DNA from: a virus
Taxonomy: Duplodnaviria; Heunggongvirae; Uroviricota; Caudoviricetes
Reading direction: 5' to 3' (one strand)
IMG/VR virus record: IMGVR_UViG_2595698869_000001
Location: 43,214-107,213 of that record
DNA: 64,000 nt
Every line of letters begins with the position of its first letter. The first letter of the stretch is position 1. The notes beneath the pieces are model-generated. The model did no database searches. It was given only the letters and a program-made list of their open reading frames with translations, and was not told the DNA's origin. Below are positions 3,524 through 58,659 of this stretch, piece after piece. The translations under genes were made by a program, and so were the position numbers.

Positions 3524-4300
3524 ATGGCGATCCAGAACCCCCATTCCACCACGCCCGGCACCATGCCGCACCTGACGCCCGGCGAGATCGGCGTCAACAA
3601 GGCCGACGACATCCTCTGGTTCCGCTCGCAGGGGCGCCGCGTGCCGATCATCCTGAGCGATCTTGACCGCGCCCCGCCGGCGGACGGCTATGTCGGCGCT
3701 CCCCTGACTCTGGTCGACGGCGCGCCGGCCTGGAATGTCAAGCTCTTGCCGTCCTCGATCGTCTCCGGCGCGGTCAAGGTCGATCTCCCGCCCGCCGCCG
3801 GCCTGCACGCCGTGCCGAGCGTCCTGCTCCAGGGCCTGGGGGCCGATCGCGTCCTGGCGACCAATGATCTGGACCTCACCCCCTTCTATGTCCGCTCCGA
3901 CTCCATCACCCTGACCCATCTGGCCTTCAGCGTGCGCTCGGCCGGCGCGCCGGCCATGCGCGTGGGGATCGTCGACAGCTTCGGCGTCGTCCAGGCCGAC
4001 ATCCTGGTCGCCGCGCCGGTCGTGGGCGCCAATGTCGTGGCCCTCTCGCCGGTCCTGACCCTCCAGCGCGGCGTCTACCGCACCATCCTGGCGACGACCG
4101 GGGCGGTGACGGTGGGGATCGCCACCGGCGCGCGCATGGAACAGGGCTGGGACATCATCGCCGACGCGCCGTCGTTTATCCGGGGCTACAGCGGTAGCAA
4201 GAACACTGGCGGCGGCATCGGGAGCCTGCCAGCGCTCACCCCGCGCCGCGACCCCGCGCCGGGCCAGGATCACGCCGTCCTCCTGCGCTGGACGGCGTGA
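3524..4300 (+). CDS. Virion fibre-associated protein, paralogue of upstream genes
   Basis: ATG at 3524, 2 nt after the previous stop (MAIQNPH...), in the 3098..4300 frame. Motif LTPGEIGVNKADDILWF; C-terminal domain resembles that of the 1..2848 protein. Confidence 0.8.
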   Translation: MAIQNPHSTTPGTMPHLTPGEIGVNKADDILWFRSQGRRVPIILSDLDRAPPADGYVGAPLTLVDGAPAWNVKLLPSSIVSGAVKVDLPPAAGLHAVPSVLLQGLGADRVLATNDLDLTPFYVRSDSITLTHLAFSVRSAGAPAMRVGIVDSFGVVQADILVAAPVVGANVVALSPVLTLQRGVYRTILATTGAVTVGIATGARMEQGWDIIADAPSFIRGYSGSKNTGGGIGSLPALTPRRDPAPGQDHAVLLRWTA

Positions 4301-4309
4301 ATCTTGACA
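4296..4309 (+). promoter_or_regulatory. Phage promoter motif (GT)CGTGAATCTTGACA, first of 11 copies in the window
   Basis: Copies at 4296, 10026, 11673, 13692, 22586, 28723, 35283 (+) and 43854, 44811, 50924, 58608 (-), each upstream of and oriented towards a gene start. Confidence 0.8.
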
Positions 4310-4362
4310 CTCGGTCGAAATGCGGTTAACCTGCGCGCTCATCTGGAGTTTCGAGCGCCATC

Positions 4363-4629
4363 ATGGCCGAGCTTGTCCGCATCTATCACCCCGAGACGAA
4401 CGAGCCGTTCGACGTGATCCCGTCGACCGCCGAACGTCTGCGCCTGGGTCAAGGTCTGGACGGTCTGGTGTGGCTCTCGCAGCCCTTCTCCCGCGCCGCT
4501 GCCGAAGAGCCGGCGCCGGAAGCCCCCAAGGGGCGAGGTCGTAAGCGCGTCGCCGCGCCCGTCTCGGACGAAGCCGAAGACGATGGCTGGCGTGACGCGC
4601 CGACCGAGGACGCTTCCGAAGCCGCGTAA
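4363..4629 (+). CDS. Hypothetical protein (88 aa)
   Basis: GGAG RBS upstream, phage-like codon usage, downstream of a promoter motif. Confidence 0.75.
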   Translation: MAELVRIYHPETNEPFDVIPSTAERLRLGQGLDGLVWLSQPFSRAAAEEPAPEAPKGRGRKRVAAPVSDEAEDDGWRDAPTEDASEAA

Positions 4630-4673
4630 GGCGCTTCCCCGTCCACTCTGCTGAAATTCGGTCTCAGTCCCAT

Positions 4674-4749
4674 GTCGGTCTAGCTCATGGGGTAGAGCGG
4701 CGGTCTCCAAAACCGCGCGTGGCAGGTTCGAGTCCTGCGACCGGCGCCA
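4674..4749 (+). tRNA. tRNA-Trp(CCA)
   Basis: Cloverleaf, GCGGT-CTCCAAA-ACCGC anticodon arm, GGTTCGAGTCC T arm, encoded CCA. Confidence 0.92.
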
Positions 4750-4754
4750 TTTCC

Positions 4755-4829
4755 GCGTCCATCGTATATGGGTTATTGCTTCGCGTTGCCAACGCGACGA
4801 ACCGGGTTCGAGTCCCGGTGGACGCTCCA
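4755..4829 (+). tRNA. tRNA-Gly(GCC)
   Basis: Cloverleaf, TCGCG-TTGCCAA-CGCGA, U73, CCA. Confidence 0.92.
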
Positions 4830-4835
4830 ATCCAG

Positions 4836-4909
4836 GCGGATATAGCTCAAAGGGAGAGCTACTGCCTTCCAAGCAGAAGATGCGGGTTCGAGCCCCGCTA
4901 TCCGCTCCA
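4836..4909 (+). tRNA. tRNA-Gly(TCC)
   Basis: Cloverleaf, loop CTTCCAA, GCGGATA/TATCCGC acceptor stem, CCA. Confidence 0.92.
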
Positions 4910-4968
4910 AAATTTTCTTCCACGACAAGCTTGACAGCCGCCGAGATTTGTGAGAGCCTTCAACCATT

Positions 4969-5031
4969 ATGACGCACCTCCTGACCCGTTACGAACGCGA
5001 GGCCACCGGCCTCGATACCACCACCGCCTAA
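4969..5031 (+). CDS. Putative leaderless 20-aa leader peptide (MTHLLTRYEREATGLDTTTA) overlapping alternative hairpins
   Basis: ATG just downstream of TTGACA at 4931. CGAGGCC/GGCCTCG/CGAGGCC-TTTT segments allow two exclusive hairpins. Confidence 0.4.
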   Translation: MTHLLTRYEREATGLDTTTA

Positions 5032-5065
5032 AAGCGGTTCTGGTAACCGAGGCCTTTTGTCATGT

Positions 5066-5143
5066 GGCCCGGTCGTCTAGCGGTTTGCAGGATTCGTGAC
5101 TTTCAATCACGAGAGCGGAGTTCGAGTCTCCGTCGGGCCTCCA
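5066..5143 (+). tRNA. tRNA-Glu(TTC)
   Basis: Cloverleaf, CGTGA-CTTTCAA-TCACG, CCA. Confidence 0.9.
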
Positions 5144-5166
5144 CCCCCAAAGCCTCCTCTGAGCTT

Positions 5167-5241
5167 GGTGCGTTCGTATATCGGTCAATACTCCGGATTG
5201 TCGATCCGGCAAGAGGGGTTCGATTCCCCTACGCACCGCCA
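5167..5241 (+). tRNA. tRNA-Asp(GTC)
   Basis: Cloverleaf, CCGGA-TTGTCGA-TCCGG, G73, CCA. Confidence 0.92.
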
Positions 5242-5252
5242 GGGCTTTCCCA

Positions 5253-5411
5253 ATGCCGCTTCAGTCGGGTTCGAGCGACGCCGTCGTCTCGCACAACATC
5301 GCCAAGCTGATCGACGAGGGCTACTCCAGGGAGCAGGCCGTTGCGATCGCTCTCTCCCAGGCGCGCAAGCCGCGCCGTCCGAAGGTCTCGCGCGGCTCGC
5401 GCCGGCGCTGA
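5253..5411 (+). CDS. Small basic protein (52 aa, [39 protein letters not shown]...)
   Basis: Read from the sequence (below the ORF-track cutoff). Resembles the common phage MPL..S.NI..L..EG...EQAVAIAL small-protein family; strong GC3 bias. Confidence 0.75.
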
Positions 5412-5482
5412 CCTCGCCTCGCTAAAGCACCCCCAGGTTCCCGGCCTCGTCGTGAGGTCGCCTGCGGTCGCGCGAGGCTTCT

Positions 5483-5707
5483 ATGACCTTTCTTGATCTT
5501 CGTTCGCAGTCGAGCACCGCGCTCCTGCGCCATGTGTCTTCCCGATCCCCGATGGCGGAAGCGGCTCGCACCGAGTTGCTGACCCGAGGCCTCGTCCCGC
5601 TCCTCACGCGACACAACGGCTGGCGCCTCGCCCCGAGCGAGCCCTTTCCGCAGCATCTCATCCCGCGCCCCGATCCGCTCGCGAGGTTCACGTGGCGGGC
5701 GGGATGA
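5483..5707 (+). CDS. Hypothetical protein (74 aa)
   Basis: ORF filling the gap between the small gene and the next promoter; no recognisable motif. Confidence 0.5.
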   Translation: MTFLDLRSQSSTALLRHVSSRSPMAEAARTELLTRGLVPLLTRHNGWRLAPSEPFPQHLIPRPDPLARFTWRAG

Positions 5708-6055
5708 AGATTTTTCTCATGACGTGCTTGACATCCGTCTAAAGTTGTGAGAGCCTGTCCAACGTCACGGATCACGACACTCCTCGGAGTGCAAAAGCGC
5801 GATCCTTCGTTATTCCCAGGGCCGTCAGCGGGCGGCCGTTCGAGAGCCATCATGTTCGCCTTGTCGCATAACAGCCTGAGCACGAAAGCCGCCTCCCCGG
5901 CGACGCTTTCGCTTGCGCTGCCGGCGACGGCCACGAAGCCCTCGACCAAGCCGACCACCTCGGCCTCGCACTCGACGGATCACCTCTAGGGTATCTCGTC
6001 TCGGGTGCAGGCCTTGGAGCCGCACCCGCTACCAACATCCTGTTGACCTAGCGCA

Positions 6056-6091
6056 AGGCGGCTCCCAGCAAGGAGACCGCCTTTTCTTTTT
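6056..6091 (+). terminator. Intrinsic terminator-like hairpin
   Basis: AGGCGG-CTCC...GGAG-ACCGCC followed by TTTTCTTTT. Confidence 0.6.
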
Positions 6092-6103
6092 CGCGTTGAT
6101 CAT

Positions 6104-6179
6104 CGGGGTGTAGCTCAGTCGGTAGAGCGCTCGGTTCGGGACCGAGAGGCCGTGGGTTCGAGTCCCGCCACCCAGACCA
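6104..6179 (+). tRNA. tRNA-Pro(CGG)
   Basis: Cloverleaf, CTCGG-TTCGGGA-CCGAG, one acceptor mismatch, CCA. Confidence 0.88.
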
Positions 6180-6186
6180 ACGCCAT

Positions 6187-6261: not shown

Positions 6262-6266
6262 ACAAT

Positions 6267-6339: not shown

Positions 6340-6344
6340 ACAAC

Positions 6345-7874: not shown

Positions 7875-8252
7875 AAGTATCTCCAGCGGCTGGATGCCGC
7901 AGTGCGATGCCTAAAGTCGAGTTTTCGACGTGTCCAGCCCCTTTGAAGTTGACACCCGCGACGCGGCCTGTCATACGTCACGACAGAGCGAACACCCCCC
8001 GGCCGGGTTTGTTGTCATACCGGGTCGTCACGCCCCGTCGGGGCTCTAGTAGCTCTTCGTGTGGAGTTTTCCGCCTCCCTCCCAGACAAGGAGGCGGACC
8101 CAACCAACATCGCGATCTCCCGTGATCGTCGGCGACGGGCGCCGTCAGAGACCTTTGCCTGCGCGGCTCCGCTGCGGCCCTGGTCTCGTCCCGACCAAAT
8201 TTTTTCGTCGTGGTGCTTGACACTGCGAAACTGTTCTGCTAGGGTTCACGTC

Positions 8253-9836: not shown

Positions 9837-9891
9837 AATTTTTCTGGCGCTGATGTGTTGACACTCCTCGGAGGCTCGGCTAAAACCAGCA

Positions 9892-9989: not shown

Positions 9990-10109
9990 GGGCGCAATGC
10001 GACGTTCAGTCCAACCATGGGTAGTGTCATGAATCTTGACTTTCGGCGCTTATTCCGGTAGCTTTCCCGACATCAGCAAACGCTCACAAGTCGGGGACCG
10101 AGAGCCGTC

Positions 10110-10526
10110 ATGTCGCAAGACCACAACGGCTCGTCCTCGGGCCAAGAACGCATCTACCAGAAACTGGATGAGCTTGGCTCCATGCACGCGCGCACCCGTG
10201 AAGATATTGCCCGCATCCAGGAGATGATGCGAGCGGTCGGTTCGTCGCAGGAGCGGATCGAAAAGCGCCAGGACCATTTCGAGCGCGAAATCTGGCGTGA
10301 GATGGAAGATCGCGCCGCGCGCACGAGCGCCCAACTCGACGAGATCAAGAGCCACACCAACCTGCGCATCGAGGAGATCGAGGCCAAGGTCGACACGATC
10401 CGCGAGGAACGGATCGCCGAGAAGGCCCAGTGGCGCGGCCCCGAGAAGGCCATCGCCGCCCTGGTCGCCGTCGCCGGGGCCATCGCCGCCTTCGCCACGA
10501 TCCTCACTTTCCTGAAGGGACACTAG
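10110..10526 (+). CDS. Coiled-coil protein with C-terminal transmembrane helix (138 aa)
   Basis: Heptad-rich sequence then AIAALVAVAGAIAAFATILTFL; downstream of promoter motif 10026. Confidence 0.8.
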   Translation: MSQDHNGSSSGQERIYQKLDELGSMHARTREDIARIQEMMRAVGSSQERIEKRQDHFEREIWREMEDRAARTSAQLDEIKSHTNLRIEEIEAKVDTIREERIAEKAQWRGPEKAIAALVAVAGAIAAFATILTFLKGH

Positions 10527-10618
10527 GACTTATAGTCAAGCTTGGGTGCCTGCGGCCAGAAGTCGCGCTTCTTGACACCCGATCTGGGCCGGCATAACCA
10601 TAGGGCCATCGTTCCTGG

Positions 10619-10874: not shown

Positions 10875-11741
10875 GTGTCCGAGTCTGCTGAGTTCAACCC
10901 GCTCGACCAAAATCAGTTCCCTCCTCGCCTCACCAAGGCTGCTGCGCGACAGGCGCGGCGCCAGGAGCGCAGCCAGAAAAAGGACCCCACGGCCAACAAG
11001 CCGAACTACAAGGCGCTCGAAGCCAAGACCGAACGCCAACGGCGCTATATCCAGGCCCTCAAGGCGGGTGAAAGCGTCATCGCCATTGGCGGGGCCGGCA
11101 CGGGGAAGACCTACATCCCGTCCCGGCTCTTCGCCAAGAAGCTGATCGAGGCGAAGATCGAACGCCTGATCATCGCCCGCGTCACCGCCTCGCGTCCCAA
11201 GCACGCCCTGGGCTTCCTGCCCGGCAAGCTGGAAGCCAAGCTCGCCCCGTGGCTCGTCCCGGTCATCGAGGGCGTCAAGGCCGAGATGAACGCCCAGACC
11301 TACACTCAGTTGCAGGAAGCCGGCAAGATCGAGTTCGCCTCGTTCGAGCACATGCGCGGCCGGACCTTCGCCGAGTGCTGCGTCCTCCTCGACGAGGCGC
11401 AGAACGCCGACTACAAGGACCTGAAGATGGTCCTGACCCGCTGGGGCGAGAACGCCCAATACGCGGTCACCGGCGACATCGACCAGATCGACGTCGACGA
11501 CTCGGGCCTGGAGACGGTCGTCGACATCGTCGAGACCCACGATATCCCGATCCACGTGATCGAGTTCACCGACGAGGACGTGGTCCGCTCGCCCATGGCC
11601 AAGGCCTGGGTCAAGGCGTTCTCCGCCCATGAGGGCAAGGACGAGCGGGCGCGGCGCTTCCACCGCCCCACTGTCAGGAATCTTGACGTCCTGCCGGCTT
11701 TTATCGATAATGGCCGAGTCACGAAACCCGTGGCGTCGTGA
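10875..11741 (+). CDS. phoH: PhoH-family ATPase
   Basis: GGAGTGKT P-loop, LGFLPGKLEAK, HMRGRTF, LLDEAQN, VTGDIDQ motifs. Confidence 0.95.
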   Translation: MSESAEFNPLDQNQFPPRLTKAAARQARRQERSQKKDPTANKPNYKALEAKTERQRRYIQALKAGESVIAIGGAGTGKTYIPSRLFAKKLIEAKIERLIIARVTASRPKHALGFLPGKLEAKLAPWLVPVIEGVKAEMNAQTYTQLQEAGKIEFASFEHMRGRTFAECCVLLDEAQNADYKDLKMVLTRWGENAQYAVTGDIDQIDVDDSGLETVVDIVETHDIPIHVIEFTDEDVVRSPMAKAWVKAFSAHEGKDERARRFHRPTVRNLDVLPAFIDNGRVTKPVAS

Positions 11742-13668: not shown

Positions 13669-13811
13669 CCGCGTCTTTCACGCCGGCTAAGGTCGTGAAT
13701 CTTGACATTTCCCAAAGTCTAGGGTAGGGTCACCACACTTGCGATGCAGGGCCGGGTCGGCACGCTCGCTGACCCCCTTTTGTCACAAAACCGTGGATTG
13801 GTGACCTGCCC

Positions 13812-22570: not shown

Positions 22571-22653
22571 CTGTCACCCACGACAGTCGTGAATCTTGAC
22601 GTTCCTGGATGATCGTGGCATCCAGGGACACCTCCTTTCATGGTTAATGCCCG

Positions 22654-28300: not shown

Positions 28301-28827
28301 TCGTCTTCCTTGACGAGCGCTCGATCGAGTTCCAGGCCGAAAACCTCGACACCTCGGGTCAGAACCGCTGGTATAAGGCCGTCGGCTCGGGCATGTCGCT
28401 GTTCGAGACCGATCCGATCCAGATCAACTACCAGCCCCGCGACCTCATGCCCTACCGCCCGGCCGACATCCGTCGGGCGGTCGCGGGCGGCGACGTCACC
28501 GTAACCTGGAAGCGCCGCACGCGTTTCACGGCCACGCTGAAGGATGGCACCGGCGTGGTCAGCCTCAATGAAGGGACGGAAGCCTACGAGGCCTATGTGC
28601 TCGCCGCGCCGTACTCGGGGGACCTGTCGCGTCAAGACGCGCCGACCGTCTACCGTCGCAAATACACCCTGACGAGCCCGAGCTTCACCTACACGGCGGC
28701 CGAGCAGACGGCCGACGGATTTGACGTGAATCTTGACACTCTGCACGTGGTGATCTATCAGTTGAGTTCGGTTGTTGGTCGGGGTTTCCCCGGCGCGCGC
28801 TCGATTGAGTCCTGGCAGGACTTCTAA
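25351..28827 (+). CDS. Central tail tip/host-specificity protein (GTA megatron/phage-tail_3-like)
   Basis: IPEIYGT.RVGGNMIW, RIWADGK, PAYRGLCYVVF, LLRGRRGT, W.RRTR motifs. Confidence 0.88.
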   Translation: MAAAIALPIVSAIVSTAISYAFPSDGPRLRDTKVSASTYGNVIPEIYGTARVGGNMIWSKPFTEKKKKKRAGKGGSYYNEYTYYCDFAMAFCRGPVKEVRRIWADGKVIYDTTGGSEVIDNNKYRFRFYPGDEAQLPDSLIVEDKGADYAPAYRGLCYVVFDDFALADFGNRIPQIMAEVYAGDEGGAAITDIVPLPSSPVTGGSYQLGQMMIDADRGYFYLVDSVSNPAGTVLRRFLLANGKEDRREIVSIPQAQFPPSVYDSPDLTSVRAVTSKGELLCVFGGINNYMRIEKLDPYSWQSLGTIGRSYPFEGTPENSLEHSNTNFEISRDEKGNYLCLTLGVFGEYNIFDPSDMSFKGKGEMAGWGGPATPMYICARQGGSAASRRFYHVTYTGGASLQVCSLGEVLYNHPLDHPGDSQTATSWAFWDEGDPGVVFFYSDGPNRYIAKWSESTGVLAWKTQLRNGDPFCGYGVYGLRARIKDNEFHWVYNKHLFSINTATGQWIDRTFDQDFYKSDNDKTAEQVNDGDKGLLLPRDISEDYVIYDPRRNIVICIGAIQAQNGIVHVGGYTGGKTSVGAIVERLLVSTGQMTSNDYDLTPLYDIPVYGYGYASSTDIKSIIAELRNLFMFDLVESDGRLVARVRGDQDPDAEVPWKLLGSQGGPTPDKADYWKETRMSESDLPASIDLTYSNIDDDYNPSTAKSKRIASPVATMLSRQQVKAECNLVMDATEAKNRVNIMLYTQWEERTQHQTALPWLYANLDASDLISVTMEDGRNYFERIGSIEFGADFSSRLETYGTDSGAYLSDKTGDGGGAGRPTVVPAPKPVVGFILNTPLLRDTHDSGGNFSNWYSAIGAGAPGVFLGGTMFKSANSQDYIDLYQEPESAEWGTVMGVVPSPSHGWFALDWETRITITPAVDFFELESITDDELWEGLNLVVIGDEVLQFRDAVQNADGTWTIWNLLRGRRGTQYACDNHKAGERFVFLDERSIEFQAENLDTSGQNRWYKAVGSGMSLFETDPIQINYQPRDLMPYRPADIRRAVAGGDVTVTWKRRTRFTATLKDGTGVVSLNEGTEAYEAYVLAAPYSGDLSRQDAPTVYRRKYTLTSPSFTYTAAEQTADGFDVNLDTLHVVIYQLSSVVGRGFPGARSIESWQDF

Positions 28828-28899: not shown

Positions 28900-29742
28900 A
28901 TGAGCAATACGCCGATCCTGAGCATCCCCCAGGTTGCCCCCAACCAGAACCAAAAAGAAGACACGATCAACACGGGTCTGGCGATCCTGGAGGCGGCCCA
29001 GAACGACGACATCCAGCTTACGGTGTCGTCTGGCAACTACAACCTCACCACCGTTCAGTTCACCCGCGCCTTCCTGCATCGCTATGCGGGCCACACCAAC
29101 GCCACGGTCGTGGTGGTCATCCCCAACACCCCGCGCTGGTTCGCCGTCGCCAACGAAGGCGGCTACGCGATGGGCCTGAAGGTCTTCGGGCAAACCCCGG
29201 TGACCACCATCCAGCCGGGCAAGATCGTCCTCTTCCAGTCCGACGGGACCACGCTGCGCGCGATCTCCGAGGGCGTCAGCCGCATCTTCGACCTGTCCGA
29301 CGTCGATGGCTCCGACACGCCGTCCGACGGACAGGTCCTGGTCTGGAGCGCCACGACCAGCCGGTTCGAGCCGGCCGATCTGCCGGCCGATGTCGACTTC
29401 TGGACGACGGGCGTCACCCCCAACGACGGCGTCGTGCTGCGCAAGCTCTTTCTGCGCCCCGTGCGCTTCCTGGCCAACTTCCTGGGCTCGGTCGCCAAGG
29501 CGGGCGTCGCGGCGACCGCCAGCACCGTCTTCACGGTCAAGAAGACCACCGGAGTCACCACCACCACGGTCGGGACCATCACCTTCACGGGCTCTTCGGC
29601 CGCCTTCTCGACGGACCAGGGCAGCGGCGCGGTCACCGTCAACTTCGGGGCCGGCGACGTCATGACCATCACCGGACCGGCCTCGGCCGACGCCACCCTC
29701 GCTGACATCGTCGCTTCCCTCAAGGGCGTCATCCTGCAATGA
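28900..29742 (+). CDS. Tail fibre-associated protein (DUF2793-like N-terminus)
   Basis: TPILSIPQVAPNQNQKEDTIN; N and C termini paralogous to the next gene. Confidence 0.75.
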   Translation: MSNTPILSIPQVAPNQNQKEDTINTGLAILEAAQNDDIQLTVSSGNYNLTTVQFTRAFLHRYAGHTNATVVVVIPNTPRWFAVANEGGYAMGLKVFGQTPVTTIQPGKIVLFQSDGTTLRAISEGVSRIFDLSDVDGSDTPSDGQVLVWSATTSRFEPADLPADVDFWTTGVTPNDGVVLRKLFLRPVRFLANFLGSVAKAGVAATASTVFTVKKTTGVTTTTVGTITFTGSSAAFSTDQGSGAVTVNFGAGDVMTITGPASADATLADIVASLKGVILQ

Positions 29743-35277: not shown

Positions 35278-35356
35278 CGAATGTCGTGAATCTTGACATC
35301 GGCATATTTCCGGACCATAGTCAAGGCCTTGATTTTCAGCACTTCCGGAATTCCAC

Positions 35357-37397: not shown

Positions 37398-37462
37398 CCT
37401 TGCGACATAAGGTCGCATGTCATGATCCTTGACAGAACGACGATCTTCGAGTATGGTCGCGG

Positions 37463-37774: not shown

Positions 37775-38575
37775 TTAGTCGACCGCTTCCAGGCGCCGGC
37801 GCTTGGGCGCGCTCGCCGGCAGGGACGGGGCAAGATCGCCGATCTTGCCGACCACCTTGCCGAGGAACACGATCCGCTTGGGATCGACGTCGACATGATC
37901 CTTCAGGTCGGCGCTATAGACCCGGAACGCGCCGCCCTTGGAGGGACGGGTGACGTGCGCGACCTGCATGACCTTGTCCAGGCCGTAGACGAACTCGCCG
38001 CCGGCGGTGCTGGGCTCGACGTCGCGGCGGACCACCGCCATGTCGCCCGGCTTGAGGCCAGGGGCGAAGTCGTGGATCGGGGCCAGGGCCAGATCGGTCG
38101 GCTCGGCCTCGAAGCGCTCGCGAAGCCAGTCGGGATCGAGGTTCCAGGTCCGGGCGCGCTTGAACTCGCCAAGGCGGCCTTTGAAGGTCACTTCCTCGAC
38201 CGGGTTGGGCGCGCCGACCCCGAAGGTGATGTATTCGGGCGTCGTCTTCAGGACGTGGGCGATCTGCTCCAGCACGTCGATGTGCGGCTTGACGCTGTCG
38301 GACTCGTACATGATGTACGCCGTGCGCGCCAGCGGCCGGCGCTCGCCCGCCTGCTTCGGCTCCCAGCCCGGTTTGGTGCTGGAGTCCTTGCGGGAATTGC
38401 TCTGCTGGGTCAGGAAGATCATCTTGGCGACCTGTTCCTGAGTCAGGTCGAGGGCCTTCCGGCAGGCGGTGATCCGCTGCCCGATGGTCTGAGGATGCGC
38501 AAGATCGGCATCCTTGTGGATCAAGGAACGAGCGCGATGGGGCACCATCGGCTTCAGTTCGGCCACGGCTTGCAT
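37775..38575 (-). CDS. XRE-family HTH regulator with C-terminal S24-like domain
   Basis: IGQRITACRKALDLTQEQVA...LEQIAHVLKTTPEYITFG; LKPGDMAVV. Confidence 0.8.
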   Translation of the reverse strand: MQAVAELKPMVPHRARSLIHKDADLAHPQTIGQRITACRKALDLTQEQVAKMIFLTQQSNSRKDSSTKPGWEPKQAGERRPLARTAYIMYESDSVKPHIDVLEQIAHVLKTTPEYITFGVGAPNPVEEVTFKGRLGEFKRARTWNLDPDWLRERFEAEPTDLALAPIHDFAPGLKPGDMAVVRRDVEPSTAGGEFVYGLDKVMQVAHVTRPSKGGAFRVYSADLKDHVDVDPKRIVFLGKVVGKIGDLAPSLPASAPKRRRLEAVD

Positions 38576-43748: not shown

Positions 43749-43910
43749 GGGGTCTCGTTCTCGCGTCGAGGCGCGATGCGTTAAAAAGCCCTGAGAAATC
43801 AGGGCCTTAGATTGACAGCAAAGGATGGTTAAGATAGCCTGAGGGGTCCCGAAAGTCAAGATTCACGACACTCGTGGACCCCTCAAAGATTCCTTGACAG
43901 CCCCTCGGAT

Positions 43911-44147: not shown

Positions 44148-44484
44148 CGCCAGCCACCCCCACCACCGCCTGGAACTCGGCCAGGGCTTGGTCGACGTCG
44201 TGCCCGGCGGCGATCTTCGCCGAGAGGTCCGCGACGGCGGTGTTGACCCGGTCGAGTTCGGCCTTGAAGTAGTCCGGGGTCTCCTTCAGGATGTTGACCA
44301 GCGCCAGGGTGACGATGTCGACCACCGGGATGCGGATGGTCTCCCCGTCGGCTTCGTTGAACGAGGCCAGCGACAGGCCGATGGTGAAGCCGCTCGGATT
44401 GTCCGGCGTCTCGGTCAGGGCCAGAACCGATTGGGCGAGCGCGCGCTCTTCTTGGACCTGGGTGTCTTCAGAGGGGGAGGTCAT
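44137..44484 (-). CDS. Hypothetical protein (115 aa)
   Basis: Strong codon bias, overlapping neighbours. Confidence 0.75.
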   Translation of the reverse strand: MTSPSEDTQVQEERALAQSVLALTETPDNPSGFTIGLSLASFNEADGETIRIPVVDIVTLALVNILKETPDYFKAELDRVNTAVADLSAKIAAGHDVDQALAEFQAVVGVAGVVR

Positions 44485-44773
44485 GGGATTCCTGCTGCAT
44501 GAGGAGGGTGATGCGGTTGACGGCGTCGACTTCGCTGATCGGCCCGGCCTTCAGGAGGGCGTCGATCGTGTCGGCGATCACCCCCTGCTGGTCGAGGGTC
44601 ATGATCGCGAGCCCGTAGAGCAGCGCCTGGGACGCGTGGCGCCGGACGCTCGGGGTGGTGTGGTGGATGATCAGGTCGGCCTCGGCGCGATCCCCGCTGG
44701 CGGGCACGAAGGCCGAGAGCGAGAATTCCGGGGCCAGATCGTCCGGGATATCGAGAGGGGCGGGGGAGGACAT
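44468..44773 (-). CDS. Hypothetical protein (101 aa)
   Basis: Downstream of promoter motif 44811-44826; GGAG RBS. Confidence 0.75.
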   Translation of the reverse strand: MSSPAPLDIPDDLAPEFSLSAFVPASGDRAEADLIIHHTTPSVRRHASQALLYGLAIMTLDQQGVIADTIDALLKAGPISEVDAVNRITLLMQQESHDLPL

Positions 44774-44840
44774 GCTCGGCTCCGGTGATGTCGTGTCTCC
44801 TGACGATTGATGTCAGGATTCACGACATCGGTCAACAAGG

Positions 44841-50876: not shown

Positions 50877-50947
50877 CGGGCGATCTCGTTCGGGAGTGTC
50901 TTGTTAACCAAGTTCCGGATGGGTGTCAAGATTCACGACATAGAAAG

Positions 50948-51622
50948 TCACGAAGCACGACTCACGCCCTGGGCTTTGATGATCTCGTAGATACGCTGGG
51001 CCGACAGGCTGTAGGCCTCGGCCAGTTGCGCCACCGGCTCGCCCTTGGCGTAGCAGTCGGCGATCTCGGCGTAGAACCGCTTCTTGGCCTCCTCCCGGCG
51101 CAGCTTGGCGTCGGGGGCGTGGCGGTCGATGAAGCGGTAGATCGCGATCCGGCTGACCCCGTAGTCCTTGGCGATCAAGGGCACGGGGGCGAAGGCGGCG
51201 TAGCTTTCGATGATGTCGGCGGCGTGGTCGGCGAGGGCCATGGGGTTCTCCAGGAGGGCGAGAGCGCGGTCGATCACCACCGCCGCGCGCTTCGAGGGCT
51301 GTTTGGTCAGGAAGCCGCAGCGGCGGCCGGCGGCGTAGGGCGGCTCCAGCCCTACGCAGAGGTACTGGTCGGCGGTCGGGTCCGCGCGGTAGCCGCCGGC
51401 GGCCTCAAGCCACCAGTGGGTCCCGCCGTCGGGGTCGCGCCCGACCATCGGCCGCCAGCCGCCGTCCCAACCGTCCAGCAGATGCCAGAGCGCCTCGGAG
51501 GCGACATAGCAGTGCCCGGCGGTCGGGTTGGAAGCCGTGTACGCGGAACGATAGGGCTCGTGCAGAAGCTCGGGTGTGAGGCTCTTCTGGACCGCGATAA
51601 GGGTTTCGAGCGGCGCCTGCAT
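50948..51622 (-). CDS. Two-domain protein: Cys-His-Asp fold candidate plus tandem HTH
   Basis: ATG 51622 overlaps the polymerase stop; GHCYVASEAL...THWW...DPTADQ, then IAKDYGVSRIAIYR and LAEAYSLSAQRIYEI. Confidence 0.7.
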   Translation of the reverse strand: MQAPLETLIAVQKSLTPELLHEPYRSAYTASNPTAGHCYVASEALWHLLDGWDGGWRPMVGRDPDGGTHWWLEAAGGYRADPTADQYLCVGLEPPYAAGRRCGFLTKQPSKRAAVVIDRALALLENPMALADHAADIIESYAAFAPVPLIAKDYGVSRIAIYRFIDRHAPDAKLRREEAKKRFYAEIADCYAKGEPVAQLAEAYSLSAQRIYEIIKAQGVSRAS

Positions 51623-53868
51623 CAGTGCGTCTCCGCCCAGGTGCGGCCCCACTTGACGTCGACATCGACCGGCAGGCGGAAATCGAACCGCTCGCCGGCT
51701 TCCTTCGCCGCGTCGACGATGTTGCGGCGGCAGATTTCCTTGATCGCCGGATCGTCGCGCACCGCCACCTGCATTTCGTCGTGGACCCAGGCCAGGACGG
51801 CGTAGTCGCCGTGCCAGCCATGGACGAGCCCGTCGTCTTCGTTGAAGGTCTCGAAGTTGACGCACCAGCCCTTGGCGATCGTGGCGCCGGCGCCCTGGAG
51901 CTTGGTGTTGAGGGCCGAGTGCTTGGCCCGCACGAAGAGGTGGCGGCCGTCGAGGGCGTCGACATAGCCGCGCTTGGCCTCGCGCTGGACGGACTTGACC
52001 ACCTGTTGCAGCGCCGGGATGCGCGTCATGATCCGCCGCCGCATTTCCGCGCCCAGGGCCTTGGCCTTGGCGACGTTCATGGTCAGGGACGGGTCGACGG
52101 TGCAGCCCAGCTTGTAGTCCTGGGCGCCGTAGATCATGGCGTAGATGAAGGTCTTGGCGGTGTCGCGCGACTCCATCTCCATGGCCGCTTGGTGGACGCC
52201 GTGGACATCGCCATCGAGCACGATCTTGCCGTACTGCCCGTTGTCGAACTCCGCCATGAAGTGGGCCAGACAGCGCAGTTCGATACCGGCTTGGTCGGCG
52301 CCCATCAGGGTCCAGCCCTCGGGGACGTAGAAGAGGTCGCGGCAGTCCCAGCCGTGATCGCCCTCGCGGCCCTTCATCAGGACCTTCTTGGTGACCACCT
52401 CGCCCTTTTCGTTCAGGGTGAACTCGCCCTCGGGCGTCAGCACCGGGCGGCCCCGGATTTGCTTGCCGTCCGGGCCGAGCAGCGGGATCGTCTTGGCCTC
52501 GTCCTTCCACTGCGGCGGCGACTTGAAGACGACGCGGGGGACCTGGGCGATGTTGGGGTTGGAGTGCGAGGCCCGGTTGGTCACCGTGCCCCCGACGTTG
52601 ACGCGGCCGTGAATCTTGCCGTCGCCGTTCCACTCCTCGCACTTGACCAGCCAGCCGTTCTTGCCGTCGACCAACTGCCCCAGGCGCTTCTTGTAGTAGA
52701 AGATTTCCGCCAGGGTCTCGCAGATCGGGATCACCAGCTTCTTGGTGTTCTCGTCCTCGGCCTTGGCCAGATCGCGCAGCACCTCGTCGTCCACCACCGG
52801 CGAGCCGGTTTCGGTGAACTCCTGGGGTTGCCAGCCATAGACCTTGGTCAGGCGGTCGATGATCTGCGGACGCGAGTTGGGGTTGAACGGCGTCAGCTTG
52901 ACCGGGCAGAAGGCCGCGCCGGCGGTGCGGTCCCCCTTCATCGGGTCCTTGTACTTGACATCGCGCGTCGGGACCGTCACCTCGGCCCAGTGCTCGCGGC
53001 TGTCGTCCTCGCCGAACTCGGGGCGCGGCTTGTAGGCGACCTGCTCCTTCTCGGGCTTGCCGGTCTCGGGCGAGGTGTAGGTGGTCGACTTGTGGCGCTT
53101 GAGCCACTTGCCCGGCACCCACCAGGAGCCAAAGTGCGCGATCGCCTCGTCCGACATCCTAGTGTGGGCGGTGCGCAGTTCCTCTTCCAGGCGGCGCGCG
53201 CGCTCGCGGTGGAACGGGAAGCCGTTGCGCTGCACCCGCTCCATCATGTCGTGGATCATGTGTTCGAGCGTGATCGCGGTCTTCGACCACGGCCGGCTCT
53301 CGATCTTGCGCCACAGGGCCTCGGTGACCTCGACGTCTTGAATCGCGTAGTCTTCCATGTCCTGGTTCCAGGACCCCCAGACGTAGCGACTGATCTCGGC
53401 CTTGTCGGTGATGCCCTTGGCCTTGGCCTCTTCCTCGGCCACGTCGGCGTAATCGCCCTTGGGGAAGCCCAGGCGCTGGCCCCAGGCACCCAGTTCATGC
53501 GAGCCGATATAGCCGCCCCACAGGTCGCCGCGCTTCCACATCCGGAAGTCGTCGTCCTTGAGGTCGGCGAACAGCATGCGCGTCATCACCAGGGTGTCGC
53601 GGATGATCCCCTGGGGATTGAACTTGTCGCCGTAGACCTTCCACAGGGCCTCGCAGTCGAAGCCGATGATGTTGTGGCCGATCAGCATGTCGGCGTCGTT
53701 CAGCATCGCGACGCCTTCGAGGATGTTGTCCTCGCGCTTGTTGCGGTGGAAGACCCAGCGCTGACGGGTGTCGGCGTCCTTGATCACCAGGATGTGGATG
53801 CGCGTCAGTTGCAGCAGCAGCCCATCGGTTTCCAAGTCGAACAGGAGCCGGCGCTTACGGAGCTTCAT
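51622..53868 (-). CDS. Family A DNA polymerase (T7-like, with 3'-5' exonuclease, no 5' nuclease)
   Basis: FDLETDG, GHNIIGFD, motif A GADQAGIELR, motif B RDTAKTFIYAMIYG, motif C WVHDE. Confidence 0.95.
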   Translation of the reverse strand: MKLRKRRLLFDLETDGLLLQLTRIHILVIKDADTRQRWVFHRNKREDNILEGVAMLNDADMLIGHNIIGFDCEALWKVYGDKFNPQGIIRDTLVMTRMLFADLKDDDFRMWKRGDLWGGYIGSHELGAWGQRLGFPKGDYADVAEEEAKAKGITDKAEISRYVWGSWNQDMEDYAIQDVEVTEALWRKIESRPWSKTAITLEHMIHDMMERVQRNGFPFHRERARRLEEELRTAHTRMSDEAIAHFGSWWVPGKWLKRHKSTTYTSPETGKPEKEQVAYKPRPEFGEDDSREHWAEVTVPTRDVKYKDPMKGDRTAGAAFCPVKLTPFNPNSRPQIIDRLTKVYGWQPQEFTETGSPVVDDEVLRDLAKAEDENTKKLVIPICETLAEIFYYKKRLGQLVDGKNGWLVKCEEWNGDGKIHGRVNVGGTVTNRASHSNPNIAQVPRVVFKSPPQWKDEAKTIPLLGPDGKQIRGRPVLTPEGEFTLNEKGEVVTKKVLMKGREGDHGWDCRDLFYVPEGWTLMGADQAGIELRCLAHFMAEFDNGQYGKIVLDGDVHGVHQAAMEMESRDTAKTFIYAMIYGAQDYKLGCTVDPSLTMNVAKAKALGAEMRRRIMTRIPALQQVVKSVQREAKRGYVDALDGRHLFVRAKHSALNTKLQGAGATIAKGWCVNFETFNEDDGLVHGWHGDYAVLAWVHDEMQVAVRDDPAIKEICRRNIVDAAKEAGERFDFRLPVDVDVKWGRTWAETH

Positions 53869-54913: not shown

Positions 54914-54968
54914 GGCTCTATGGTTAACGGATGTCGTGAATCACGTCAAGAAATGTCGTCAACGACGA

Positions 54969-55757: not shown

Positions 55758-55759
55758 GA

Positions 55760-56203
55760 TTACTCCTGAAGGCTTTCGTAGAAACTAACCAGGGCCTTGA
55801 GGTCCTTTAGATCGCCACTGTTTTTGAGGCGATTGGCTTTCCAACTCACGATCACGACGTTTCCAGGGACATAGCCTTGGGTGTTGTCGATACGATCAAG
55901 AGATGGCGAGTGATCGTGCATCCGTCCGGAACCCGCCGAAAGACGAAGTCCTAGCGCCGGACAGACTTCGGGAATCGTGAGGTCAGCTTCCGTCAGCGTG
56001 AAGGGGATGCCTGCCTGCTTCGCTCGTCCACGCGCGGTCGACAGGAGGGCAGAAAGAAACCCTCCCGTCGCATAGCGGAACCGCCGTTTAGCGGAACGAC
56101 AAACCGAACACGTGCGTCGCCGCCCATTATTTCTCGACCGGTCTTTGGAGAACTGGTCGAGGGTTTTACGAACTCCGCAGGCATTGCATCGCTGCGTGAT
56201 CAC
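55760..56203 (-). CDS. HNH-like endonuclease with N-terminal CxxC zinc motifs
   Basis: CNAC...CSVC, CPALG, SLDRIDNTQGYVPGNV.IVS.KAN; AT-richer than its neighbours; GTG start overlapping the upstream stop. Confidence 0.8.
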   Translation of the reverse strand: MITQRCNACGVRKTLDQFSKDRSRNNGRRRTCSVCRSAKRRFRYATGGFLSALLSTARGRAKQAGIPFTLTEADLTIPEVCPALGLRLSAGSGRMHDHSPSLDRIDNTQGYVPGNVVIVSWKANRLKNSGDLKDLKALVSFYESLQE

Positions 56204-57903
56204 AAGCGCCAATACCTGCCGTTGAAGGTGATCAGCGCCCGCTTGCCGTTCGGGTACTGCACGCAGTGGGTGTGCGCCCAGGACGAGGGGCCGGTGTTGT
56301 AGCCCATGTCCAGCTTCGAGGTCGTGCCGGTGTTGTAGGCGCTCTCGAAAATGCCGGGCGAGTGGGTATGACCAAACGTAGTCTTCGGGCCGATCTTGGC
56401 GAACTGCTGGATGTTGCCGCGCGAGCCGTTGGCGCCGTTATGCCCGTGGTTGGAGTGCTCGACCCCGCCAACGACGCAGGACTCGTCCTCGCGCAGGAAC
56501 TTCACGCCGTTGCAGTTCCAGACGTCGAAGGCGTTGGTCATCACCTCCTCGAAGATCGAGAAGTTCTTTTCGCCGGTCCGGATCGAGGCGTAGACCGCCC
56601 GCTGGCAGGTGAGGAAGAACTCGGCGTTGACCGGGTCGGCGCGGTAGTCGGCCGTCTTCAGCCATTTGTTGAGCGCCAGATCGTGGTTGCTCTCGACCAC
56701 CGTGACCTTCGAGTCCGGGGCCTGCCGGCCCAGGATGGTCAGGAACATCGCCACCTCGCGTAGTTCCTGCTCGACGCTTTCGGAGCCCTTGACATAGAGC
56801 CGGAAGCGATCGTGCGGATCGGCGATGTTGTGGTGGTTGCGCGCCCGGAAGTCGGAGACGTCGTGGACGAAGATGTGCTCGGGCCGCAGGACGTCGATCA
56901 TCGACGGCGTCGCCACGCTACCCCACACCCGGCTCCCGTCGGCCGAGCGCTGCTCGGTCGGGAAGAAGCCGAAGGTGGCGGCCGACACCTCGGGATCGAT
57001 CTGCGCCACGTGGACGTCGCCGGGCGTCAGGCAGGCCACGCGATGGCCCTCGGTGACCACGCCGTCCTTGACGAAGACGTCCAGGTCATAGAACGAGCCG
57101 TCGGTGTCGCCCAGCAGGTGGCGGCAGAAGAACTTGCCGTCCTCGTCGACCTCGACCAGCACCGCGCCCAACTGGTGGTGGAAGCTGGCCTTGATCCCGG
57201 CCTTCTTGGGAACGTAGTTCGGCTTGGTGACCGCGCCCGTCGTCATGATCTGCTTGGACGGGGTGTGCTTCATCGTCGGAACGCTGACGAGTTGCACCTT
57301 GGCGTGGGGGAAGATGCCCCAGCGCTCGCGGGTGTAGGAGTGGAAGCCCGACAGCGGGTTCTCGGCCGTGGGGAGGGTGTTCATCTCGCCGCAGAAGTCG
57401 ATCCGGTCGGCGATCCGCACGCGCTCGGCGACGAGGTATTCCATCACCCGCTTGTGGAAGAACGCCGCGTGCTTGGCGTGGTCCTCGAACAGGCGCTTGG
57501 AGTAGGTGAAGCCAGCGATCATGATCTCGCACGGCGCGTCCCGGCGCAGGTGCTCGGCATAGGCCTCCAGGTTGTCGACGAACTCCTCGTGGATGTGCGT
57601 CGAATCCTGGGCCGAGGACAGGATGAACCGCCGGCGCCCGGTGGTCTCATCCACCGTCACGGTCCGGGCGGCGGGCGCCGGCCGGTGCGACAGCGGGTCC
57701 TTGCGCATCGAGTAGAGGCGGTTCTGGAGCGTCGTGCGCTTGACGCTGTACTTGCGCGAGAACGCCCGCTGGCCGCCGGCCTTCTTGACCATCGCGTTCA
57801 GTTCTTCCGGCGACACCGAGTAGATGTCGAACGGACCCTCGGCCGGCAGGGCGGCCTTGGGCTTCTTGCCCGCCTTGGAAGCGTGTTCGAACTCAGCCGG
57901 CAT
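56200..57903 (-). CDS. Calcineurin-like metallophosphoesterase with N-terminal HTH-like segment
   Basis: PGDVH, HDVSDF, ESNHD, HGH, GHTHS motifs. Confidence 0.75.
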   Translation of the reverse strand: MPAEFEHASKAGKKPKAALPAEGPFDIYSVSPEELNAMVKKAGGQRAFSRKYSVKRTTLQNRLYSMRKDPLSHRPAPAARTVTVDETTGRRRFILSSAQDSTHIHEEFVDNLEAYAEHLRRDAPCEIMIAGFTYSKRLFEDHAKHAAFFHKRVMEYLVAERVRIADRIDFCGEMNTLPTAENPLSGFHSYTRERWGIFPHAKVQLVSVPTMKHTPSKQIMTTGAVTKPNYVPKKAGIKASFHHQLGAVLVEVDEDGKFFCRHLLGDTDGSFYDLDVFVKDGVVTEGHRVACLTPGDVHVAQIDPEVSAATFGFFPTEQRSADGSRVWGSVATPSMIDVLRPEHIFVHDVSDFRARNHHNIADPHDRFRLYVKGSESVEQELREVAMFLTILGRQAPDSKVTVVESNHDLALNKWLKTADYRADPVNAEFFLTCQRAVYASIRTGEKNFSIFEEVMTNAFDVWNCNGVKFLREDESCVVGGVEHSNHGHNGANGSRGNIQQFAKIGPKTTFGHTHSPGIFESAYNTGTTSKLDMGYNTGPSSWAHTHCVQYPNGKRALITFNGRYWRL

Positions 57904-58594
57904 AGAGAAGCTCCGGTTTGGCGCTGACCGGCTTGGACCAATCCCAGACGTACCAAGCGTAGGCGAAGCGCGGGGCGCCCTTGGTGCCGGCGATCCAGCG
58001 GGGGCGGTGACGAAGGGTGACCTTCGCGGTGAAAGCGGGGTGATCGAACAGGTCCGCGCGCGAGCGCGCCGCGTCCCATTCGTGGCGGCAGAGGAAGGCC
58101 ACGAGGCCCTGGTCGGCCTCCATCAGGTCCAGCGCGTGGCGCGCGGCGCGCTCGGCGTCCTTGCCGTAGGGCGGGTTGGTGATGATCGCGTCCGGACGCG
58201 GCGGCAACGGCGTGCTCTTGCGCTCCTCGCCCTTCTCGTCGACAACCGTCTCGGGCCGGACCTTCAGCGCGCCCAGGCGGTCGAGGTCGGCCGGCGTCAG
58301 CTTGAAGAAGTCCTCGACCGCGTCGACCTCGAAGCCCTCGTAGCGGTGGATGTCCGTGGCGAGGACTTCCTGCACGAAGGGCTTGAGCGGCGTGGCGATG
58401 GCGCCGTTGCCGGCGAAGGGCTCCCAGGCGAAGAACGGGGCGAAATCATCGCCCAGGGCCTCGATCAGGGCGTCGAAGGCCGGCCGAGGAGTCGGGTAAA
58501 AGTCCAGCGGGGTCCTGGCATATCCGGAGGCGCCCAGCATGGAGGGGTCTTTGCGACCAGCATCGGAGAGAGACATGGTCGTGAGGGATGTCAT
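57893..58594 (-). CDS. Amino-(N6-adenine/N4-cytosine) DNA methyltransferase-like protein
   Basis: DFYPTP, WEPFAGNG (SAM binding), IITNPPYG (catalytic). Confidence 0.82.
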   Translation of the reverse strand: MTSLTTMSLSDAGRKDPSMLGASGYARTPLDFYPTPRPAFDALIEALGDDFAPFFAWEPFAGNGAIATPLKPFVQEVLATDIHRYEGFEVDAVEDFFKLTPADLDRLGALKVRPETVVDEKGEERKSTPLPPRPDAIITNPPYGKDAERAARHALDLMEADQGLVAFLCRHEWDAARSRADLFDHPAFTAKVTLRHRPRWIAGTKGAPRFAYAWYVWDWSKPVSAKPELLYAG

Positions 58595-58659
58595 GGTTAA
58601 CGAAGGGTGTCAAGATTCACGACATTGACTGTCGTGACGCAGCACGTTAATCAGGAGGC

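Follow-up and report, generated by a model that had tools for sequence, protein, structure and literature searches.

A conserved box abutting the -35 element of putative sigma70-type promoters in phiCbK-like Caulobacter phages

Introduction

What reads the conserved box that abuts the -35 element in a family of putative promoters of a Caulobacter phage? The question arises from a 64,000-nt stretch of viral DNA (hereafter the window), which corresponds to positions 43214-107213 of a phage record of 221,828 bp that carries direct terminal repeats (IMG/VR record IMGVR_UViG_2595698869_000001). A first-pass annotation of this DNA had described eleven copies of a promoter motif in which a GANTC site is fused to the -35 box, and had proposed that middle/late transcription of the phage may read DNA methylation through the host regulator GcrA or a phage-encoded analogue. 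We found that the copies share a 16-mer, GTCGTGAATCTTGACA, which probably marks a non-early promoter class of phiCbK-like phages, with a box that would dock a phage-encoded factor.

Window positions 13000-36000 were 95-98% identical to CcrSwift, Magneto, and phiCbK in a megablast comparison, and by its sequence the window is a segment of a phiCbK-like Caulobacter phage. Work on the Caulobacter cell cycle uses phiCbK as its standard phage. The plus strand of the window carries the tRNA cluster and the head-tail, tail, and lysis genes, and the minus strand carries genes for nucleotide metabolism and replication. In the literature that we searched, there was no description of phiCbK promoters, GAATCTTGAC appeared in no Caulobacter or phage paper among those listed, and Gill 2012 mentions promoters once. 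Coordinates prefixed G000 are those of the whole phage record; other positions in the studied phage are window coordinates.

Results

Copies of the 16-mer in the window and in whole genomes

The pattern TCGTGAATCTTGAC with up to three mismatches gave 24 matches against 4.2 ± 2.1 expected, and none of 100 shuffles reached 24. In the window, GAATCTTGAC occurred exactly at 10 sites and GAATCCTGAC at one further site. All eleven copies of the first-pass annotation were recovered, with positions agreeing to within 1-2 nt: the 15-mer, counted from the first G to the C of TTGAC, lies at 4294, 10026, 11673, 13692, 22586, 28723, and 35283 on the plus strand and at 43855-43869, 44812-44826, 50925-50939, and 58609-58623 on the minus strand. 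Eleven is the count for the window but not the family total, since a genome-wide motif scan gave about 20 copies. Good copies numbered 20 in the studied phage, 19 in phiCbK, and 20 each in Rogue and BL10, and a reversed-pattern control gave none. Among the IMG/VR contigs listed for the exact 15-mer, more than one copy was present only in phiCbK-like contigs; we take the single matches on the other listed contigs as chance.

Every one of the eleven copies lay upstream of a gene start on the same strand, which bears out the earlier description of copies that face gene starts. The start codon was 39-163 nt from the C of TTGAC (gene starts were taken from the phiCbK RefSeq annotation or the open reading frame (ORF) map), and the strand of the copies tracked the gene modules. 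The genes below the copies are gp079 with the tRNA cluster, gp334, and those for a head-tail adaptor, a tail tube/minor tail protein, a glycoside hydrolase, gp318, the endolysin, NrdA, gp303, an exonuclease, and an NPPY DNA methyltransferase. Three of the eleven copies are situated inside the 3' end of the preceding coding sequence (gp078, phoH, and a tail protein). The putative promoters are as follows.

4294-4332 (+), copy 1: box GGCGTGAATC, -35 TTGACA, 17-nt spacer, -10 TAACCT; within the 3' end of the gp078 homologue, heading the gp079 homologue (ATG at 4363) and the tRNA cluster
10026-10064 (+), copy 2: GTCATGAATC-TTGACT, -10 TAGCTT; after a predicted terminator, heading ORF 10110-10526
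11673-11711 (+), copy 3: GTCAGGAATC-TTGACG, -10 GATAAT; inside the 3' end of phoH, heading the head-tail adaptor gene (11759)
13692-13730 (+), copy 4: exact box, -10 TAGGGT; heading the tail tube/minor tail gene (13812)
22586-22624 (+), copy 5: exact box, TG-extended -10 CATCCA; flanked by the genes for the tape measure protein and the glycoside hydrolase (22654)
28723-28761 (+), copy 6: GACGTGAATC-TTGACA, -10 TATCAG; inside the 3' end of a tail protein gene, heading ORF 28900-29742
35283-35321 (+), copy 7: exact box, -10 CATAGT; heading the endolysin gene and lysis cassette (35357)
43831-43869 (-), copy 8: exact box, -35 TTGACT, -10 TATCTT; heading nrdA
44788-44826 (-), copy 9: GTCGTGAATC-CTGACA, a weakened -35; heading ORF 44468-44773, with a partial inverted copy just downstream
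50901-50939 (-), copy 10: exact box, -10 TAACAA; just after a gene for a protein with two helix-turn-helix (HTH) units, heading the exonuclease gene (50876)
58585-58623 (-), copy 11: exact box, GTTAACCATGACAT across the -10 region; heading the NPPY DNA methyltransferase gene

The orthologues of copy 2 in Rogue and BL10 read GTCGTGAATC, and copy 3 is kept in both phages. At copy 8, the nrdA promoter, GAATC is retained in Bajun, Colossus, and SC also. Copies 3 and 7 were found by a generic sigma70 scan too, and an inverted TCACGAC stands 7 nt upstream of copy 11. Opposite copy 9, on the other strand, stands a degenerate box (GTCGTGTCTCCTGAC, 44790-44804, +); the two are divergent, and the pair is kept in Rogue and BL10; a similar head-to-head pair of boxes occurs at G000:19573(-)/19595(+).

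Anatomy of the promoters and selection on the box

The 20 genome copies were aligned on the box with a fixed 17-nt spacer. Positions -45 to -30, which correspond to the 16-mer, were near-invariant, and the spacer was variable. TTGAC occupied -35 to -31 in 19 of 20 copies (CTGAC in the remaining one), followed by A at -30 in 15 of 20. The -10 element lies exactly 17 nt past TTGACA, with G at -14 in 15/20, C or T at -12 in 18/20, A at -11 in 14/20, and T at -7 in 13/20; these elements are weak, of the (TG)-(C/T)A..T type, and often TG-extended. A strict E. coli-type sigma70 scan detected only 3 of the 11 window copies and one relative without GANTC, in keeping with the weakness of the -10 elements. 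Neither a sigma r2/r4 domain nor a T7-type RNA polymerase was found in the phage, so the host holoenzyme is the likely enzyme. The sigma70-type assignment of the first-pass annotation stands on the consensus -35, the 17-nt spacer, and the conserved -10 block: the copies are very probably promoters of the sigma70 (Caulobacter sigma73) type that point into genes.

We then compared 16 orthologous promoters with those of Rogue, a phage approximately 80% identical to the studied phage, in which the flanks of these promoters are about 72-90% identical. Per-position identity was 94-100% at -45 to -30, 50-94% in the spacer, and 88-100% at -17 to -10, where seven of the eight positions reached 100%. 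Upstream of -46 identity was about 60-95%, and conservation began abruptly at G-45; the T at -46 that precedes the box was not conserved (69%). The single change within -45 to -30 shifts a variant toward the consensus. Purifying selection is thus directly visible in these alignments, and by this measure the box is constrained as strongly as the -35 and -10 elements.

The unit of the box is the 10-mer GTCGTGAWTC, since it occurred 18 times against 0.5 expected while GTCGTGA alone was at expectation. We rejected GTCGTGA as an independent half-site (54 occurrences against 49 expected); inverted copies stand upstream of a few promoters and are partly unconserved. The palindrome TGTC-N9-GACA was rejected as a dimer site because its left T is not conserved. 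The box also occurs, inverted, in another promoter.

54921-54949 (-), promoter of the C5-methyltransferase/DNA polymerase block: TTGACG, 17-nt spacer, TAACCA

The spacer of this promoter carries GTCGTGAATC on the plus strand at 54933-54942, identical as far as Brevundimonas phage Bajun. Conserved in this inverted setting, the 10-mer behaves like a protein-binding site and not like an UP element.

Lineage-specific boxes upstream of a common extended -35

To place the box in a wider context, the whole genomes of seven relatives were fetched, and every [AT]TCTTGAC or TCTTGAC site was catalogued. The extended -35 TCTTGACA, with two or three mostly A/T bases upstream of it, was common to all lineages, from Caulobacter to Mesorhizobium phages. 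The next 5-6 nt upstream formed a block that differed by lineage.

GTCG(T/C): studied phage, Rogue, BL10, and Bajun
GCCAG: Colossus and PW (GCCAG-WWW-TCTTGACA in Colossus)
GACGC: CcrSC (SC) and BL9 (GACGC-WWW-TCTTGACA in CcrSC)
GTTGT or GACGT: Gurke
GTCCAG or GTCAAG: Mesorhizobium phage Cp1R7A-A1

The replacement can be followed at a single locus, the promoter between the tape measure and glycoside hydrolase genes (copy 5), for which orthologues in five further lineages were compared.

GTCGTGAATC: studied phage
GCCAGGAATC: Colossus and PW
GACGTAATTC: SC
GACGCAATTC: BL9
GTCGTCGATC: Bajun

C. crescentus CB15 is the host of the phiCbK-like phages, of Colossus, and of the Bertelyvirus phages, so all of these meet the same polymerase. 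Distinct and strictly conserved blocks on one host suggest a phage-encoded reader over the host enzyme or a host factor, the latter having been weighed by the lineage-specific boxes only.

A simpler account would dispense with a dedicated reader, in that the 16-mer is an optimised strong promoter, TCTTGACA plus an UP-like element, homogenised within each lineage by duplication or gene conversion. This would suit the TCTTGACA core and its adjoining A/T-rich triplet in all lineages, the consensus -35 with its optimal spacer, and the fact that we found no reader common to all lineages. However, the invariant G-45, C-43, and G-40 make the box GC-rich, which UP elements are not; different blocks are under strict purifying selection in lineages with a common host polymerase, to the extent of 100% identity between the studied phage and Rogue at 16 independent loci; orthologous sites would not be fixed amid diverging flanks by gene conversion alone; and the 10-mer is conserved inverted, away from a -35. 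We regard this account as improbable.

The lineage comparison also bears on GANTC, which arises where the box (...GA) joins the conserved extended -35 (TC-TTGACA). At orthologous promoters, paired by the downstream gene, GANTC was retained in 10/15 in Bajun, 5/10 in Colossus, 2/10 in SC, and 2/6 in Gurke. The site is probably a lineage-specific detail of a phage-specific box, that is, a feature of the phiCbK/Bajun branch and not of the promoter architecture.

The GANTC site and the host GcrA/CcrM system

GAATC was present in all eleven window copies and GANTC in 19 of 20 strict genome copies, in one as GATTC; the central base of GANTC was A in 19 of 20. The statement that every copy keeps GAATC is therefore true of the eleven, but it is partly a selection effect, because the window has members of the family without GANTC.

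37419-37457 (+), member without GANTC: GTCATGATCC-TTGACA, -10 TATGGT; kept in Rogue and BL10
10562-10600 (+), member without GANTC: GTCGCGCTTC-TTGACA; kept in Rogue and BL10
5740-5778 (-), member without GANTC (site 5764): GTCGTGATCC-GTGACG; box identical in Rogue and BL10

A further such member, at G000:204382, is likewise kept in Rogue and BL10, and one at 8207(+) is not conserved. The conserved members indicate that GANTC is not needed for membership of the family. In addition, the seven one-mismatch variants of the box all leave the G, A, T, and C of the site intact, and the chance of this is (11/15)^7, approximately 0.11, so a stronger constraint on GANTC than on the remainder of the box is not demonstrable. 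Genome-wide, GANTC was under-represented (322 sites against 481 ± 19 expected from an order-3 Markov model), and all four central bases were affected.

According to the proposal of host control, CcrM of the host would methylate GAATC, and host GcrA bound to sigma73 would read it, tying phage transcription to the methylation or cell-cycle state. The presence of GANTC in 19 of 20 strict copies of a genome otherwise depleted of it is in favor of this proposal; weak -10 elements would gain from the stimulation of open-complex formation by GcrA (PMC4647560), and the S3 table of PMC10688885 lists ccrM mRNA as persisting in infection at 1.3-1.5 times the uninfected level. The position and context of the site argue against it. 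GAATC spans -40 to -36 with its centre at -38, outside the published positions of GcrA boxes at -20 ± 1, -30 ± 2, or +5 to +30 (PMC9976885, Wu 2023; PMC4647560), and the absence of boxes further upstream is ascribed there to the length of the linker. No additional GANTC was found at the canonical GcrA positions in the 20 promoters. The preferred GcrA context, YGAKTCK/YGAKTCG, is not matched by the TGAATCT of the box; when all 32 NGANTCN contexts were ranked for GcrA, AGATTCA (= TGAATCT) came 32nd, and two good sites mutated to AGATTCA and the 30th-ranked context showed GcrA binding at the unmethylated level (PMC4647560, Haakonsen 2015). Orthologous promoters without GANTC in Bajun (5/15), Colossus (5/10), and SC (8/10) add to this, as do the conserved members that lack the site and its unexceptional constraint (p ~0.11).

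The family resembles the known GcrA/CcrM promoters (PMC4647560; PMC5887438, Wu 2018; PMC9976885) in being of sigma70 type with an embedded GANTC, in the presence of a GcrA-family protein, which here is the phage's own, and in weak -10 elements that could profit from an open-complex cofactor. It differs in that the site belongs to a longer box of 10 bp, the other half of which, GTCGT, would lie outside the contacts of GcrA, in the worst-ranked context and the centre at -38, and in the dispensability of GANTC in conserved members and sister lineages. No match to a CcrM-family (PF01555) methyltransferase was found anywhere in the phage. With the worst-ranked context, an off-register centre, GANTC-less members, and replacement of the site by A/T-rich triplets in sister lineages, readout through host GcrA is a poor explanation of the box, and we consider it highly unlikely. 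The findings as they stand do not demonstrate epigenetic control of a phage.

A GcrA homologue encoded by the phage

Where the first-pass annotation had suggested that the rest of the genome be searched for a GcrA homologue, one was found outside the window, at G000:164273-164755(-) (gp222; PF07750, 88.5 bits against a cut-off of 26.9). A GcrA homologue in this phage group had already been reported (PMC3556154, Gill 2012). Full-length PF07750 homologues were present in the studied phage, Rogue, BL10, and Bajun, and none was found in Colossus, PW, SC, BL9, XM05, Cp1R7A-A1, or RXM. The homologue in Bajun (W05:30556-31188, -) has a duplicated DNA-binding domain (DBD), with two tandem domains in one 312-codon frame. 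Gurke and Kabachok carry only a GcrA-DBD-like piece, at W07:87960-88199 (-) and W06:114022-114237 (-), respectively, the latter within a 555-codon frame.

We aligned the phage protein with the solved host protein (PDB 7ye1) over residues 8-169. Residues W3, W15, G38, K39, and R42 are retained, and base and methyl contacts are altered by R33K, N34S, I37C, and H41D, so that four of six base-contact residues are affected. The zinc ligands (C-X14-C-X9-C-X2-H) and W120, F130, Y142, and Y151 of the sigma-binding domain are retained as well. At the positions aligned with G129 and F132 the phage protein has D and H. In host GcrA, G129D and F132A abolish sigma binding (PMC5887438, Wu 2018), and docking of the phage protein on sigma is consequently not assured. 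Its score in the NCBIfam model sig70cofacGcrA was 83 bits against a cut-off of 280. By these comparisons the phage protein is a member of the GcrA family and not an equivalog, and neither its DNA preference nor its methyl dependence nor its docking on sigma can be taken for granted.

The gcrA gene is located in the early region behind its own TTGTCA-N17-TAGGGT promoter, a location that suits an activator made early. At G000:164775-165060, a 59-codon ORF and this promoter precede gcrA, and the promoter overlaps, back to back, two promoters of the early class described below (GTGTTGACA) of opposite direction.

Could gp222 be the reader? As such it would be made early, dock on sigma73, and recognise TGAATCT at -38, possibly regardless of methylation; it would supply swarmer cells, which are without host GcrA, with a phage-specific version of the cofactor. 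The full-length gene occurs only in lineages with a GANTC-dominated box, and GANTC retention declines in step from Bajun through Colossus and SC to Gurke, as given above. Altered base contacts with R42 and G38 retained would fit a shifted sequence preference, the retained zinc ligands and interface residues and the early location of the gene are in line with such a role, and the A fixed at the centre of 19 of 20 sites is not a requirement of CcrM. Set against this are the GTCG at -45 to -42, which is equally conserved and lies beyond the 7-bp GcrA footprint, the conserved variants of the box without GANTC, the replacement of the G129 and F132 equivalents, the low equivalog score, and a position at -38 that is unprecedented for GcrA. 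Moreover, the lineages with the full-length gene also have the GTCG block in common, so the co-occurrence of gene and site counts as one phylogenetic contrast only. A phage-encoded analogue of the kind envisaged by the first-pass annotation may act here, but in view of the changes in base and sigma contacts and of this single contrast we consider gp222 a possible though doubtful reader. The version in which a GcrA retargeted by these contact changes reads TGAATCT at -38, a context and position that host GcrA disregards, perhaps without N6-methyladenine (m6A), and switches on the ~20 replication, virion, and lysis promoters in swarmer cells would be speculative; if it were true, the lineages that lost gcrA would be letting GANTC decay.

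Early promoters and timing

A second promoter class, with about 22 copies, was found at G000:113828-202883, where it fills the region of the early genes. It has the form ..TGGC..GTGTTGACA-N17-TAGAAG followed by GACGACAACGA, and its -10 is strong and invariant. The boxed copies are a class distinct from these early promoters of the phage, as had been supposed, and the strong, invariant -10 of the early class as opposed to the weak -10s of the box class fits a scheme in which the host alone suffices for the former and the latter would need an activator. One copy of the second class lies in the window, in the tRNA region at 9855-9862 (+), with GTGTTGACA ... CTAAAA.

In an RNA sequencing (RNA-seq) study whose first time point was 15 min (PMC10688885), the replication genes are assigned to the early phase and the structural and lysis genes to the middle-to-late phase. 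The label of a middle/late class is accordingly not purely correct, since replication genes that RNA-seq places early (PMC10688885) are headed by the box too. Because the class spans early and middle/late genes, we call it non-early and not late.

In many promoters with the box, GTTAACCATG or GTTAAC overlaps or follows the -10. Such sites occur at 58586-58597 (-), 54921-54930 (-), 50903-50910 (-), and 4325-4332 (+), and further ones at G000:19595, 22538, 25619, 107805, and 206313; the motif is kept in Rogue, BL10, Bajun, Colossus, and SC. The half-site of SciP/CtrA derived from chromatin immunoprecipitation (ChIP), (G/A)TTAACCAT(A/G), is matched by GTTAACCATG (PMC4083442), and control of phiCbK promoters by CtrA has been shown for gp005 and gp018 (PMC9437464). 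CtrA or SciP may therefore act on the same promoters, with cell-cycle timing layered over the box.

Other candidate readers encoded in the window

Two regulators and one methyltransferase in the window deserve mention in connection with the box.

50948-51625 (-), two-HTH candidate reader: YunG-like N-terminal domain fused to a C-terminal double HTH domain
37775-38575 (-), CI/XRE-like regulator: HTH and C-terminal domain; in every phage lineage tested except Erythrobacter phage XM05
57893-58594 (-), NPPY DNA methyltransferase: FAGNG...NPPY motifs, adenine/N4 type, not of the CcrM family; PHROG 799, 6e-53

The two-HTH protein matched PF08765 (Mor) at residues 174-219 with 25.8 bits against a cut-off of 24.9, that is, at threshold, as well as HTH_23, with several HTH matches at its C terminus, and it gave weak matches to PHROG families annotated as late transcriptional activators. 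In homologue searches the YunG-like domain was widespread, and the C-terminal part was specific to phiCbK-like phages. A structure model was confident only at residues 130-220 (predicted local distance difference test, pLDDT, 75-91), where it forms two three-helix HTH units. Fold matches were to SANT/Myb, the GcrA DBD, resolvase, LuxR, and sigma-4 HTHs, all with Z of 5-7, and over both HTH units to the AraC-family protein Rns (Z 5.7); values below 8 denote no more than a common arrangement. Foldseek gave no match against the PDB at E <= 0.001. The protein is present in Rogue and BL10. In the corresponding interval, which the DNA polymerase and exonuclease genes flank, Bajun carries an ORF of 93 aa with the HTH part only, similar only at E ~0.02, and Colossus and SC have a membrane protein. 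As far as these comparisons go, this candidate is also confined to the GTCG lineages. As a universal reader the Mor-like protein was rejected, because tblastn gave no homologue in Colossus, SC, or Gurke. The gene lies within a transcription unit of the box class, which makes its product less apt as the first activator.

The CI/XRE-like protein is a possible reader of the repressor type, and it leads to the idea that the box is an operator at which a repressor on the -35, either this protein or host SciP of the G1 phase, delays or shuts off the class. Operators typically have this geometry, with a conserved site directly against a perfect -35; the spacer of another promoter contains an inverted copy, and an XRE-like gene occurs in every lineage tested except XM05. 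For SciP, TGTCGTG is one base from the proposed site TGTCGCG, and the SciP/CtrA half-site derived from ChIP, GTTAACCATG, is found at the -10 of several copies (PMC4083442). The TGTCGCG motif is disputed, however, with more than 1,460 genomic sites and no effect on mutation, and the T preceding the box is not conserved. Furthermore, the XRE recognition helix differs between the studied phage and Bajun despite their common GTCG box, and if a host factor bound the box, phages that share a host would not be expected to differ in it. We judge an operator very improbable. As identities for the box itself, SciP TGTCGCG was rejected (one base off TGTCGTG, a disputed motif of low information), and so was a TgrL/XRE reader, since the published ChIP matrices for TgrL, RtrA/B, and CdxA/B (core CAAC[CT]) do not fit the box.

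The NPPY methyltransferase had no Pfam match, and a PDB sequence search was empty. Its 233-aa ORF starts upstream of the transcription start site that promoter copy 11 predicts; the 204-aa start of the phiCbK RefSeq annotation fits better.

Discussion

The reading that we favor is that of a boxed, non-early promoter class served by a phage-encoded factor; the sequences themselves show the promoter anatomy, the purifying selection, and the lineage specificity, and we infer from there that a reader exists, which protein it may be, and the temporal role. In outline, host RNA polymerase with the housekeeping sigma73 would use TTGACA, the 17-nt spacer, and a weak, often TG-extended -10. The 10 bp at -45 to -36 would constitute a lineage-specific box on which the factor docks beside sigma region 4, and docking would, following the early genes, turn on those for replication, tRNAs, the virion, and lysis. 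As to the identity of the factor within this scheme, the phage GcrA is a tentative candidate and the two-HTH protein a weaker one, and somewhat over half of the weight falls on another phage protein.

Such a scheme has precedents. At T4 middle promoters, a MotA box is combined with appropriation of sigma by MotA/AsiA; the box replaces the -35 and is centred near -30. The present promoters likewise combine a phage box near the -35 with a host sigma70 -10 in a post-early class of about 20-30 copies, except that the box is at -45 to -36, upstream of an intact TTGACA. In promoters of the Mu Pm/Plys type, Mor and C bind dyad-symmetric sites at promoters without a good -35. A small phage HTH activator against the -35 would be a shared trait, and a marginal Mor-family match is encoded in the window, whereas the box is asymmetric, the -35 is consensus, the Mor score lies only just above the cut-off, and the fold matches are unspecific. 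MarA, SoxS, and Rob act at class II promoters as monomeric two-HTH activators on an asymmetric box that overlaps the -35. Here, too, an asymmetric, orientation-specific box abuts the -35, and one candidate reader has two HTH units in a single chain; it shows no membership of the AraC family at the sequence level, however, the box has 10 bp instead of about 20 bp, and the likeness is one of working principle only.

Three observations weigh against the favored reading. First, the box class heads genes of differing reported timing, so that the box alone cannot set timing. Second, the -35 is a perfect TTGACA, and the promoters may consequently fire without an activator, or the box may be an operator. 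Third, Colossus and the Bertelyvirus phages have analogous boxes but neither of the candidate readers.

For phiCbK-like phages, the 16-bp signature, with 100% conservation between phages of about 80% identity, maps the non-early units, eleven in the window and approximately 20 per genome. For gp222, action on host genes has been the sole proposal since 2012, and the box gives a concrete test of what the protein is for. More broadly, the series formed by the phiCbK-like phages, Bajun, Colossus, Bertelyvirus, Gurke, and Cp1R7A-A1 has one promoter architecture with lineage-specific boxes, and this series would be useful for the discovery of phage specificity factors and for orthogonal promoters in Alphaproteobacteria.

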